A stretch of DNA of 64,000 nt from an uncultured Gammaproteobacteria bacterium (GCA_963764725.1 CAVXTM010000015.1:288001-352000), one strand, 5' to 3'. Positions 49,923 through 55,664 are shown, counted from the first letter of the stretch. The notes: a model not told the origin generated them from the sequence alone. Program-made: numbers and translations.

Positions 49923-50330
49923 CTAAGCAAAAACGTTCTCGGCAAGCGACTGCGGTGAATGAATCGTCACGCCGCCGAGCGTCTTGCCATAAAGGCCCCG
50001 AAGTGGGTGCGGTCACCCGTTACGAGAACGTCGCATGCTAACCGGATCGCGGCGGCCAAAACCGGGCGATCTTTCTCGGGGATCGCAAGAGTCTCCCGCA
50101 AGGATACCGGATGAGCCTGGGCGGCTGCCATGGAGACGCGCGCGAGCAATGTTTCCAGAACAGCGAGACTACCCGGGGCCTTAGTCGCGAGGTTGCGCCG
50201 CGCTTCTTCCACCACGTAGCCGTCGGCCCAGCATTCGTGACCCGCTTCCATCAGCCACGCGAGCAACTGCCTCACGGCCCCGTCCGCCTTCGGCGGGAAA
50301 AAGTATGTTGGCGTCGAGAAATATCCGCAT
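49923..50330 (-). CDS. PIN-domain (VapC-like) toxin, two apparent frameshifts
   Basis: MRIFLDANILF, EEARRNL, KDRPVLAAA, LVTGDRTHF. Confidence 0.8.
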
Positions 50331-50575
50331 CAACGCGCGGACTTGGTCTTCTTCTTCCGATGCAAAACCTTCTCAAGCTCTGCTTCGCCTTGATCGAATT
50401 CGCGGATCCGCTTCTCGTTATAGATCTCGATCGGCAGCGTGACGGCAGGTCGCAAAAGCAAGCCTTCCGGCGTTTCGGCGATGAGCTGCTCGTCGGCGTT
50501 GATGCCAAGCGCCTCCCGGAGCTTGGCCGGTACTGTGATGACGCCTCGGCTGGTGATGGTGAGGGTGGTTTTCAC
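50330..50575 (-). CDS. AbrB/MazE/SpoVT-family antitoxin
   Basis: TITSRGVITVPAKLREALGI...GLLLRP; directly upstream of the PIN gene. Confidence 0.85.
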   Translation of the reverse strand: MKTTLTITSRGVITVPAKLREALGINADEQLIAETPEGLLLRPAVTLPIEIYNEKRIREFDQGEAELEKVLHRKKKTKSAR

Positions 50576-50772
50576 GGCGGCAGTCTCGCAGAAATACAGT
50601 AATGCTGCAAGGCAACGATATGCTTCAGCCTAAAGTGAGTCTGTCTCGTTGCTTTCGTCGTAACCCGCGCACCCGACGTGCGGTGATCTTCCGAGGCGTA
50701 CCGCGCGGAGACCCAGTTCGGCCGTCGATAGGCGCCAGTCCTCGTGCCTATTAGAACCTATTTGGCCTCCGC

Positions 50773-51049
50773 TTACGTCGAGTTGTCCGCGACCGCGAGG
50801 TCCCCCGCAATCAACCGAAACTGCTCGAGCGCCGCCTCCAGGTCATCGACGATCTCCTGCGCGATCACGTCCGGCGGTGGTAGGTTATCGGAATCCGCGA
50901 GGCTTTCGTCCTTCAGCCAGAAGATATCGAGGCTGGCTTTGTCGCGGGCGATCAGCTCGTCGTAGTCGTAGCAGCGCCAGCGACCCTCGCTCCCGGTTCC
51001 GTCGTTCTTACGCTGCTGCCCGCTTCGCACCGTCCCCTCTCCCTGAGGG
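50773..51049 (-). pseudogene. hsdM: Type I R-M methyltransferase HsdM, extreme C-terminal fragment
   Basis: EGRWRCYDYDELIARDKASLDIFWLKDESLADSDNLPPPDVIAQEIVDDLEAAL. Confidence 0.85.
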
Positions 51050-52030
51050 CTGTCTCTTGATCGGATCTTTTCACTGTTTTTTGAGGCTCAGAAATTGCGC
51101 GCTGACCTGAGTAGCATCGACGCGTTCCTGCAAGCGGAACCAGCCCTCCCACAATACAGCCCAGCCAGCGCGTCCGGTGCGTTTTGTGTCTATCCAGCCG
51201 CCCAGTTTGGCGAGGGTCTCGCAGGCCCACTTCAGCGAAGGCGCTTGCGCGGGCGGGCGGCACCGGTGCTGTGTGACCCACAATACTTTCCATTCCATCT
51301 CCTCGAGCACCCCGGCACAGCTGACTTGCCCTGCTGCCTCCACCGACAAGCCTTTGCCTGTAGCGCTATCGAGCCATTCGCGCAATTGCAGCAGCCGCAC
51401 CGCGATGAATGCCAATATCACGGCCATGCGCTCCAAATTGTCGGCCGACTGCATACGTCGGGCTTCTACCCCAGCGCCGGATTTCCACGCCTTGTGAAAA
51501 TCCTCCACTCGCCAGCGCCGCGCATAGTGGCTCAATACCCGCTGCGCCTCGATGATGGTAGCCACCGGTTCGCTCGCCAACAACAGCCAGCACAAGGGTT
51601 CCTGCCCATGCGGGGGATGTGCCTCCATCGCCAACACCGCATTGACCTGCAGCGAGGGCAGTCCCGGTGCGCGCCGTGGGGCGCAAAACTCAATGCAGGC
51701 GCTGCGCACCTGCAGATGCGCTTGCCGCGAACGCCGTGCATGCGCCCCACCGCGTTGCTGGACCCGCACGCCATGCGAACCCAACACCGGCGCACGCTCC
51801 AGGGCTTCGAACAGGTGGCGCGCCTCGCCCGCCACGCGCCGGTCCCAACTTGCGCGCACGACGAACCGCTCGCCACGCTCGACTTTGTACTGCAAATACT
51901 CGTAGATGTCAGCCTCACGGTCACACACCGAAATCACTCGCGCCTGCGTCACCCCCAAGCGCTCGGCCATCCGTCCACTGGCGCGCTGCCACTTGAAGCT
52001 TTCCTTCTCCCCATAGGCGCGCTCCCCACG
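51050..52030 (-). mobile_element. IS4-family IS50/Tn5-like element, 5'-truncated
   Basis: EKESFKW, VCDREADI, Y..RWRVEDFHKAWKSG, AKLGGW..TKRTG..GW..LWEG; end CTGTCTCTTGATCGGATCT at 51050-51068. Confidence 0.9.
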
Positions 52031-53340: not shown

Positions 53341-53733
53341 ATGAGGGGATCTCCCATCCGACCACGTAGGCTTCCGATCATGCCGATTGGCCGGGTTATA
53401 CAGCCGCACGAATTCATCCAGGTCTGCACGCTTGAGCGGGTTGGTCTTGAGCGTGTAGTGCTTGTTGGTGCGGAGATCGTAGATCCAGAGCTTCTTTGTC
53501 CATGGGGTCTCCGAGGCCGGCTTCTTGTCGAAAAAGAGCACGTTCGCCTTCACGCCCTGGGCGTAGAAGAGGCCCGTCGGCAGGCGTAGCAGGGTGTGCA
53601 CGTCGCACTCGTACAGGAGCTTGCGGCGGATGGTCTCGCCGGCGCCGCCTTCGAACAGCACGTTGTCGGGCACCACCACCGCGGCGCGGCCGTGGGGCTT
53701 GAGCAGGGTCTTGATGTGCTGCACGAAGTTGAG
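53341..53733 (-). pseudogene. hsdM: HsdM internal fragment (after motif IV)
   Basis: [61 protein letters not shown]; motifs I and IV absent. Confidence 0.88.
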
Positions 53734-53756
53734 TCCCTGACCTGCTCGCGCCGTTG

Positions 53757-55211
53757 CTACATGAACATGCGGTACGGATAAGTCGTGCCTGGTAGTTCAG
53801 GGACATTGGCGATCGTCCGCGCGAGGCGTTGAGAGTAGCGAATGGTCACCGGCACGGGGTCATAGAGGGCGTCGTTGTTCCAATCCATCTTGGTCAATGC
53901 CAAAGCTTCGAGCGCTGTGGTTTCCAAAGGACCGGCTCCTGCGTGTCGTGTCAGCATCAACGGGCGAGGAATACTTTTCTTGCCCTGATAGTAGTCACCG
54001 GTCGTCGATGCGCCAGGCGCATTGCCTGCGACCCACAGCAGCGCGGAAATGCCCGAACGCAGCTGCAATGCCCCTCGCGGCACCGGATAGCTCGAAGGTT
54101 TGCTTGGTGGTCTTTGCCTCCCAGACTCGACCATCCAAACGCCGCGCCAAGCTGAACTGCTGCCTACTTCAATGCATTCGACTTCGGGAACACTCGAGAG
54201 GGCATCGAGTGCGCCGACCAACTCATCGCTCTTGAAAGCCGTCGTCTTGTGAATCACAAGGCGCTTGGGCAGAGCGCCGCCGTTGCGGCCTTGGTAGAAG
54301 GAAAGGCTGCGAGCCAAAACCGCTCGCATGTCGTCGCGGCTGAGGAAGGGGTTGGTGCGCGCTTCGTCGACATCGGCTACTGGGTCGCGTGCTTCGAAGG
54401 CGACGAATTGCATGCCTCCACCGTCCATGTCGAAGACTTGCGAACAACAAGTGACGTAGTGCATTTCATCCGCTTTACCCCGAAGCGCATAGGCAAGTCC
54501 GATGTAGGCGGTGTCCGCAGGCACGCCGGGAAGCGGCGCAAGCTTCCAAGGGATGCCGCCGGCCTTAACATACAAGGCTATCGCCAAACGCCAAGCCAAA
54601 GACGCTTTGTACTGAAACGAGAACGCGCGATCGTTGACCACCTGCGAGGGAATGCCGTGTTGTGCACCCAGAGCCTTCAGTGCGTCATGAGCGTCAAAGC
54701 CCTGGGAACGCAACGCAGGCCCCCAGCTGTCCGGAAAGTGGACCAGCACCACATCGAACTGATCCCGCACCGCCGAGAGTCGGCGCATGGCATCACTCAT
54801 CCCCGCCAGCAGGCGCGCCTTGAGTTCTCCGTCTCGTGACAGCTCGGCTACTCTTTCGGGCCACTTGATGTGCGCGGTGGCCGGCGCTGCCGTCAGAGGC
54901 ACGCCAAACAGGGATTCAAAGCCCGGAAAACACGGGACGTACTCGCGCCTGTCGCTTGGTTGATGGGCCGTCTGCAAGGCCTTCATCAGCTGGCCACGCT
55001 GCTGCCAAGCGCTCGCAGGCCCCACGGTGGCAATCCTTAGCTCGGGCGTGAAAGGCTTGAATGCCGACTTCGTGTATGGCCCGAAGTTCAACAAGCCACG
55101 TAGCGGATGTAGATCGGTCGCGTCGTCCTTGTCTGGCGCGAAGGCCAACATTGGCTCGTCCAGCAGCGTGAAGGGCGGCAGCTTCGAGGCGGCGTAGGTT
55201 GTTGCCATCAC
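53757..55211 (-). CDS. Short prokaryotic Argonaute (MID-PIWI*, catalytically inactive)
   Basis: 484 aa; D.HD.LKA...IPSQ and YVKAGG.PWKL (MID); [23 protein letters not shown]...PVTIRYS (PIWI lacking the DEDX acids). Confidence 0.9.
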
Positions 55212-55664
55212 CGCTGCCTATCGAAGTACGCGTGGTGCTGGCCGGGGCGACTCCAAGCCGTCACACTCGACACACCGAATACCGCATCAATGCCCGAATC
55301 GGCATCGAGCCCGAATGCGCAGATCGTGCCCTCGTCAGACGAACACAACAAGTTGGCCCAAGCGTCAATGATGTTCGTCCAGATCGGGTTGTACCTAGTA
55401 GCCCATCGCTCACGGCGCCAGTCGCCGGCTGGATCGCCGCGGCGGAAGGACACGGGTGACACCTCGTCAGTTTCACCGTCATCCTCAGGTTGTGTGTTCT
55501 GCGGTTTCGGAAATTCGATGAAAGTGAATGGATCGAACACGCACCACCAGCGGTCAGCGAAATACTCCAAGCTAAGTCGAACACCTCCGGCGAACGGGAA
55601 TCCGAGATTCGGCACAGTGCCACCAAGCGGCGATTTGTATGCGCGTTGCAGCTTGGCCAAGCGC
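55208..55664 (-). CDS. APAZ-like C-terminal part of the short-pAgo partner (5' end missing)
   Basis: Overlaps the pAgo start by 4 bp; GVRLSLE..WWCVFDP...RERWATRYN..W..IIDAW resembles the APAZ ends of Sir2-APAZ proteins. Confidence 0.7.

Follow-up and report, generated by a model that had tools for sequence, protein, structure and literature searches.

How does an intact short prokaryotic Argonaute (pAgo) come to lie a few nucleotides upstream of part of a type I DNA methyltransferase gene (hsdM), and is the defence system to which it belongs still whole? The arrangement occurs in a stretch of 64,000 nt from an uncultured gammaproteobacterium (G000:C15:288001-352000), which we call the window and in whose coordinates positions are given unless a contig is named. 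The assembly, G000, is a draft of 19 contigs with a completeness of 96.9%. A preliminary description had regarded the locus as a pAgo-APAZ cassette nested in hsdM, with the methyltransferase gene acting as a landing pad in which partial hsdM repeats flank swappable defence cargo. We consider it very probable that the locus is instead a recently broken operon of the Sir2-APAZ/short pAgo kind (SPARSA), lying in a decaying and rearranged defence island 3' of lpxH. When such systems are intact, a heterodimer of guide-loaded pAgo and APAZ protein senses invader nucleic acid and the Sir2 NADase is released, and the ensuing depletion of NAD+ leads to abortive infection.

The pAgo itself has an uninterrupted reading frame. 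Made up of MID and PIWI domains only, and within the size range of SPARSA Argonautes (~450-510 aa), it aligns end to end with the PADLOC model pAgo_I (positions 2-457 of 457; E 7.5e-207) and over its whole length with the short Argonaute of G. sulfurreducens (Protein Data Bank (PDB) chain 8in8_C, positions 6-473 of 473; E 6e-100). Its orthologue in the nearest relative is 96% identical in amino acid sequence; this relative is a public record, L025, and the same operon was also read on contig C171 of G007, a same-genus genome that is flagged unpublished. As had been noticed earlier, an APAZ-like gene overlaps the pAgo gene by 4 nt (55208-55660 against 53757-55211). Its product corresponds to the end of the Sir2-APAZ model PDLC02401 (positions 410-521 of 524; E 1.1e-37), and across the contigs of G000 the model gave two complementary matches, one of positions 405-521 in the window and one of positions 1-409 on another contig, at C7:4503-5786. 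The C7 piece carries a SIR2_2 domain (PF13289; E 1.4e-13); the Sir2 effector is present in the genome, physically apart from the pAgo. The intact partner in L025 matches the Sir2 superfamily chain of the same structure, 8in8_B, over residues 21-529 (E 1.2e-55). Because the positions of the Sir2-APAZ model are divided between the window and C7, the C7 piece bears the SIR2_2 domain, and 8in8_B and 8in8_C are the closest solved structures, the system is of the SPARSA type and not SPARTA or SPARDA. The proposal that the two genes encode a short pAgo and its APAZ partner, as in abortive-infection systems, is supported, and the type, which had been left open, can be named.

Passages of PMC10474274 describe the G. 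sulfurreducens SIR2-APAZ/Ago complex to which 8in8 belongs (further structures are 8jkz, 8jl0, 8k87 and others), and state that short pAgos lack the DEDX catalytic tetrad. The gene order and the overlapping stop and start codons of that system are the same in the intact relative of G000. In G000, by contrast, no complete Sir2-APAZ gene stands directly 5' of the pAgo in the same operon: with the partner cut at codon 469/470, the pAgo adjoins no more than residues 470-624 of 624, and the operon in the window is without its effector, the Sir2 half being on C7. The effector had rightly been placed outside the window, and looking further afield for it was rewarded, with residues 1-469 recovered on C7. 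Its absence had been put down to the end of the available sequence. The window in fact continues for 8 kb past 55664, and the gene stops at 55675, where it appears to have been cut by a rearrangement.

What cut the gene is visible at both of its broken ends. In L025 the Sir2-APAZ protein is encoded by one open reading frame (ORF) of 624 aa, and when this protein was used as a tblastn query its residues 1-469 fell on C7:4371-5777 and residues 470-624 on window positions 55675-55211. A second gene is broken at the same two places. In the window the APAZ stub adjoins a metallophosphoesterase gene, of which the 3' part is present there and the 5' part on C7. The intact 353-aa metallophosphoesterase of G007 aligned by tblastn with the window over residues 227-349 and with C7 over residues 1-246, a local alignment that overruns the break; a four-way alignment placed the break at 226/227. 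The same alignment showed that the crossover lies within a TC common to both genes, a microhomology of 2 bp. The exchange is exact to a base or two, no residue having been lost or duplicated and base 55675 being left unassigned at the joint. On C7 the 5' parts of the two genes meet head-on, and in the window the 3' parts stand back to back, beside ParA-like and CHAD genes.

The reference loci show the undisturbed state. In G007 both genes are uninterrupted, Sir2-APAZ and pAgo on C171 and the metallophosphoesterase beside ParA/CHAD on C58 (statements about C58 rest on G007). By blastn, each reference locus has one breakpoint in G000, part of it matching C15 and the rest C7, and the flanks are collinear with G007: the window matches the ParA/CHAD flank and C7 the amine-oxidase flank. 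One metagenome contig (record 29 of run X6) also holds a relative's metallophosphoesterase sequence that is unbroken across 55676. Sir2-APAZ thus appears to have been cut between codons 469 and 470 by the same event that cut the metallophosphoesterase gene.

The simplest reading of this break is a chromosomal inversion, because an inversion would be expected to leave two co-oriented genes exchanged reciprocally and with base precision. The inversion would have cut both genes and rejoined their four ends crosswise at the TC microhomology, so that the Sir2 domain and two thirds of APAZ moved to C7 and 155 residues stayed before the pAgo. C7 and C15 are separate contigs whose relative order the assembly does not give; on one replicon, a single inversion would span at least ~457 kb (C7:5790-118818 plus C15:1-343675). 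GC skew has no clear change of sign at C15:343.7 kb and is uninformative on the point. No repeat common to the two junctions was found by blastn, the best match being 16 nt (E 0.47). Recombination mediated by an insertion sequence (IS) or another repeat, and misassembly driven by a repeat, were set aside at both junctions for this lack of a common repeat.

The other end of the pAgo gene meets hsdM. Past the pAgo stop, G000 and G007/L025 remain homologous in DNA sequence for about 25 nt; the homology ends at 53731-53737, within a CTCA microhomology at which the sequence switches into the hsdM frame (...SNKQ/LNFVQH) at the codon for L. The stop codon occupies 53759-53757 and the L codon 53733-53731; the gap is 23 nt and agrees with the abrupt hsdM start at LNFVQH noted before. 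From there the gene does run to the HsdM stop once the IS elements are taken out, as had been proposed: the ORF that bears the first piece (53311-53724) matches positions 289-410 of the 487 of the PADLOC model MTase_I (PDLC03026) and positions 166-276 of 311 of Pfam N6_Mtase, and since the second piece takes up MTase_I at 404-481, the two pieces are consecutive when 51035-53341 is removed. Their DNA is 81-88% identical to the hsdM genes of relatives. Compared with an intact HsdM, the window gene is without the HsdM_N domain (Pfam), the S-adenosylmethionine-binding part and the NPPF motif, and has 2.3 kb of IS sequence inserted in it. In the intact hsdM genes of the relatives G006 and G008, NPPF lies ~45 residues upstream of SNKQLNF; in contigs of other organisms (runs X1, X2, X3 and X6), hsdM is unbroken across 53733, the codons for TSNKQ continuing upstream, and the metallophosphoesterase is unbroken across 55676.

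In no part of G000 was the 5' half of this hsdM found. Neither hsdS nor hsdR is among the ORFs at 49.9-56.1 kb, which comprise PIN, AbrB, the IS transposases, pAgo, the APAZ stub and the metallophosphoesterase stub; the window outside that range was not scanned for these two genes. Because its N6_Mtase coverage is limited to 166-276 of 311 and its 5' half could not be located in G000, the hsdM piece is a catalytically dead remnant, a pseudogene that was later cut again by a nested IS insertion. The joint has two candidate origins, a deletion and illegitimate recombination during acquisition of the cassette. On the 3' side of the pAgo, 23 nt of native flank are kept and joined at CTCA to the middle of hsdM; this hsdM lacks its catalytic half and is split further by the nested IS4-like and IS481-family insertion, with AbrB and a twice-frameshifted PIN gene following.

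Could hsdM nevertheless be a landing pad, with defence cargo swapped between partial hsdM repeats and the pAgo cassette nested by design? The abrupt same-strand start of hsdM 23 nt past the pAgo stop invites this view, as does a truncated type I restriction-modification (R-M) cluster in L025 (a second hsdM, hsdM2, a zeta-like gene and an HSDR_N match of profile positions 4-124 of 198) directly upstream of the same operon. There is also precedent for defence genes within type I R-M operons: passages of PMC11411939 describe TgvAB on VPI-2 of V. cholerae, likewise a defence operon beside same-strand type I R-M sequence. In TgvAB-type cases, according to the same passages, the cargo is enclosed by hsd genes that are intact and belong to an active system. 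Here, unlike there, hsdM is a dead fragment hit by IS elements, hsd sequence is confined to the 3' side, and no hsdS or hsdR accompanies it within 49.9-56.1 kb; the cassette is not flanked on both sides by one functional hsd operon, its 5' flank being a metallophosphoesterase fragment and not hsdM. The missing 5' half of hsdM, and joints made at microhomologies of 1-4 bp and not at repeats, also speak against a landing pad. A 2024 study by Payne et al. reportedly provides a further case of defence genes located within such operons.

Homologous loci bear on the same proposal, which would call for a recurrent association with hsdM. We surveyed 80 of them, with pAgo proteins 66-96% identical to that of the window, using tblastn with pieces of the window as queries. 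The APAZ stub was matched at all 80 and the 5' part of Sir2-APAZ at 78, and Sir2-APAZ is unsplit at 76 loci, cut by a contig end at the other four and split at none. The first hsdM fragment was matched at a single locus (1/80), L025, where the similarity is merely 35% identity over 71 residues, belongs to a different family and lies upstream, on the other side of the operon. The second hsdM fragment, AbrB and PIN were each matched at 0/80 loci, as was the metallophosphoesterase. A full-length hsdM of the same family, the hsdM2 of L025 and its HsdR N-terminal fragment, likewise used as tblastn queries, each found L025 only (1/80, within 6 kb). Nor were type I R-M families seen among Pfam families matched by at least two ORFs in the immediate neighbourhood (two nearest ORFs per locus): none was among the best 25 of 74 families for 138 downstream ORFs, or among the best 25 of 91 families for 144 upstream ORFs. 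Neighbours across the loci are instead varied defence and mobility genes, for example HamA, integrases, reverse transcriptases and AbiEii. The 80 loci offer no recurrence of the hsdM association or of the split of Sir2-APAZ, and on these grounds we regard a landing pad as extremely unlikely.

One other gene does recur in the survey. A Fic/DOC gene lies upstream of the SPARSA operon in 13 loci (13 Pfam matches among the 144 upstream ORFs). By coordinates (~2.9-4.1 kb) these are L034, L039, L041, L044, L050, L052, L054, L055, L057, L058, L068, L069 and L099. The gene encodes ~393 aa with Fic_N, Fic/DOC and a winged-helix HTH, and stands directly 5' of Sir2-APAZ on the same strand (L039 was checked individually). 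It could be a recurrent third gene or a regulator of SPARSA.

Is the broken system of G000 still able to act? The break falls inside a helix of the APAZ part that is confidently predicted (residues 465-482; predicted local distance difference test score (pLDDT) ~86-92) in an AlphaFold2 model of the intact L025 partner, which was built on a 70-sequence alignment and has a mean pLDDT of 80.3. The break is accordingly predicted by the model to be structurally damaging; a benign split in a disordered linker, considered as a candidate, lost its support with the placement of the break within this confident helix. Judged by eye, the stub can start only at a TTG that has no recognisable ribosome-binding site. 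Given that the Sir2 domain and two thirds of APAZ are on C7, and that only the last 155 residues stand before the pAgo, with no recognisable promoter, SPARSA of G000 is most likely non-functional. The break would be recent, because the pairwise ratio of nonsynonymous to synonymous substitution rates (dN/dS) of the pAgo against L025 is 0.13, which indicates purifying selection over the divergence, and because polarised replacements show no G000-specific excess (S_N 5 versus 7, S_C 1 versus 2, pAgo 3 versus 8), numbers that are small, with 17 substitutions in the stub.

The same observations can be turned around. An ORF without decay would also be explained by continued use of the pAgo and the 155-residue stub, either as a three-piece SPARSA acting in trans with the N-terminal part on C7 or as an effector-less guide-binding module. 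The stub keeps its 4-nt translational overlap with the pAgo, and the C7 piece keeps its native upstream leader along with the SIR2_2 domain. We nonetheless hold such continued use to be very unlikely: the break lies in a confident helix, the partner is split at none of the 80 homologous loci, and the stub, besides its poor start, has no promoter-like site upstream. Much the same low probability attaches to a broken system that works with the C-terminal ORF of HsdM as an extra component, a third component that had been suggested from the GTG at 53724. That GTG is indeed present, with AGGGA 9 nt upstream. The ORF that it opens, however, lacks the catalytic half, begins after NPPF and passes into IS481 sequence after 121 hsdM residues, and no other pAgo locus among the 80 has an hsdM partner downstream.

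A related and less exotic account, likewise of low probability, concerns how the cassette arrived: it might have been acquired by homology-facilitated illegitimate recombination anchored in lpxH, overwriting the 5' half of a resident type I R-M system. If this is true, one defence system would have replaced another in a single step.

Several points weigh against a recently broken, inactive SPARSA operon. All three junctions rest on a single 19-contig assembly, without read-level confirmation. Public sequencing runs scanned for the stretch contained at best a share of 0.15 of its sampled words, and among contigs from four runs (X1, X2, X3 and X6) none bridges 53733 or 55676 with at least 31 letters on both sides. 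The intact metallophosphoesterase reference is the unpublished G007:C58, for which the metagenome contig of run X6 is the sole independent support. With C7 and C15 on separate contigs, that the exchange was an inversion and not some other reciprocal exchange, and how large it was, are matters that we infer. The reading frame of the pAgo is whole and without signs of decay, a picture that continued use would give equally, and a promoter and terminator scan of 53200-56300, with 0 promoter-like sites against 0.9 expected, tells nothing either way.

The draft state of the assembly, the lack of a bridging contig and the IS copies that complicate assembly in this region raise the suspicion that one or both joints are chimeric and that the real genome has an intact operon. 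We judge this unlikely. The junctions are exactly reciprocal, residues 1-469 and 470-624 adding up to one protein and the metallophosphoesterase doing likewise at 226/227; they have no common repeat that could mislead an assembler; the assembly holds no intact copy of either gene; and the IS elements are not at these joints. A 151-nt unitig from run X3 also begins at 55672 and matches without mismatch, although with 4 letters left of the joint it was not counted as bridging.

The setting of a broken SPARSA operon is best read from its relatives. From the leader through Sir2-APAZ and pAgo to ~25 nt of 3' flank, the L025 operon is ~96% identical in DNA sequence to that of G000, and it lies in the same place downstream of lpxH. 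Its gene order is lpxH, hsdM2, a zeta-like gene, an HsdR N-terminal fragment, Sir2-APAZ and pAgo. It differs from G000 in its unsplit 624-aa Sir2-APAZ, in a 2.63-kb type I block between lpxH and the leader, and in what follows the pAgo, which in L025/G007 is a hairpin, an 89-aa ORF and a RecD2-like gene, with no hsdM 3'. That block is not present on C7 of G000, where lpxH is followed by the same leader and the 5' part of Sir2-APAZ and the joint at the missing block shows a microhomology of 1-2 bp. The HsdR fragment of L025 (HSDR_N profile positions 4-124 of 198) is truncated at residue 130, where the sequence common with G000 begins. The stretch between lpxH and the SPARSA leader in L025 (1297-3998) is a degenerate type I R-M cluster, in which the zeta-like gene is of the zeta-toxin/AAA kind and the C-terminal end of hsdM2 resembles, by eye, an HsdS tail. 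On C7, the ORF L001:999-1340 was considered as an HsdR fragment and dropped, having no Pfam match.

In a third genome, G004, AbrB and an intact 138-aa PIN gene lie directly 3' of lpxH. Homology and synteny of the window with G004 end at 49930, near where the preliminary description had its feature start. With the inversion undone, the order in G000 would read lpxH, leader, Sir2-APAZ, pAgo, truncated hsdM with its IS elements, AbrB and PIN, and synteny with G004 and L025 suggests that the whole is a variable defence island 3' of lpxH. Comparison of G004, G007/L025 and G000 brought out further synteny breaks at ~49930 (after PIN), C12:290802 and C12:383795. Upstream of the RecD2-like gene, G000:C12:286007-290612 is another synteny break at the island; by eye, its ORFs of 191 aa and >1300 aa look like a Uma2-type endonuclease and a large ATPase-like protein.

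The AbrB/PIN pair that had been reported after hsdM is where it was said to be, as one intact and one broken gene. The AbrB/MazE-type antitoxin is intact, and PIN is a pseudogene whose frame is broken twice relative to the G004 orthologue, so an intact VapBC-like pair is not present. The two frameshifts compensate each other: both ends of the protein, the N-terminal MRIFLDANILF and the C-terminus, are read in one frame and residues 11-117 (107 codons) in another. The coordinates of these and the other features are collected in Table 1.

Table 1. Features of the broken SPARSA locus and its surroundings, in window coordinates unless a contig is given.
Feature	Position	Strand	Basis or remark
PIN toxin pseudogene, two frameshifts	49930-50333	-	tblastn of intact G004 PIN; weak PF13470 PIN_3 match
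AbrB/MazE-type antitoxin, 81 aa, intact ORF	50330-50575	-	PF04014, E 3.9e-08
hsdM pseudogene, 3' end, to HsdM stop	50773-51030	-	MTase_I PDLC03026 positions 404-481 of 487, E 1.4e-19
Partial IS4-like element, first 996 bp of ~1597 bp	51035-52030	-	DDE_Tnp_1 transposase fragment 51071-51970 (Pfam)
IS481-family element, 1312 bp	52030-53341	+	407-aa rve-type transposase 52072-53295; Pfam rve, rve_3, LZ_Tnp_IS481
hsdM pseudogene, middle fragment	53342-53733	-	MTase_I positions 289-410 of 487; begins at L of LNFVQH
Native pAgo 3' flank retained, 23 nt	53734-53756	-	alignment with G007/L025
Short pAgo (MID-PIWI), 484 aa, intact ORF	53757-55211	-	PADLOC pAgo_I; 8in8_C
APAZ-like ORF within the Sir2-APAZ 3' fragment, 150 aa, TTG start	55208-55660	-	overlaps pAgo start by 4 nt
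Sir2-APAZ 3' fragment, residues 470-624 of 624	55211-55675	-	profile match; tblastn of L025 protein
Junction J2, Sir2-APAZ fragment (-) to metallophosphoesterase 3' fragment (+)	55675-55677	.	four-way alignment
Metallophosphoesterase 3' fragment, residues 227-353	55677-56060	+	5' part on C7 beside Sir2-APAZ 5' part
Reciprocal junction J1	G000:C7, about 5776-5789		four-way alignment, blastn

Both IS elements that interrupt hsdM have copies elsewhere in G000. IS4-like copies are on C10, C9 and C11, at full length at C10:155274-156870 and on C9, and copies of the IS481-family element, 99.8-99.9% identical, are on C16 and C9. The IS481-family element abuts an IS4-like element twice, at C9:84301-87206 at the end of a full 1595-bp copy and in the window at position 996 of the element. 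This repeated adjacency suggests either an adjacent deletion mediated by IS481 or a target preference.

Other features of the window lie outside the locus. At 58977-62393 (-) a 1138-aa fusion combines B12-binding, MeaB GTPase and methylmalonyl-CoA-mutase domains, as in an IcmF-like fused mutase. A further toxin-antitoxin pair near the island, at 62722-63378 (+), consists of a HigB-like toxin of 93 aa and, after it, an HTH_3 antitoxin of 120 aa. On the other side, frames at 43800-48400 look by eye like adenylation and thioesterase domains of a non-ribosomal peptide synthetase, and a 4'-phosphopantetheinyl transferase lies at 46002-46688. A low-GC stretch (0.47-0.52) with a polysaccharide-biosynthesis/flippase gene (46892-48400) looks like a separate acquired segment.

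Little of this is new in kind, SPARSA being a known type of system. The locus offers a base-level example of an abortive-infection system and its neighbours being inactivated, in which four routes can be seen: inversion, deletion or illegitimate joining at microhomologies of 1-4 bp, IS insertion, and frameshifts. It also counsels caution in annotation, as a seemingly complete pair of pAgo and APAZ genes may hold no more than the stub of a split gene, with the effector half elsewhere in the genome. Were the split system to work in trans, it would bear on the modularity of the APAZ-pAgo interface.

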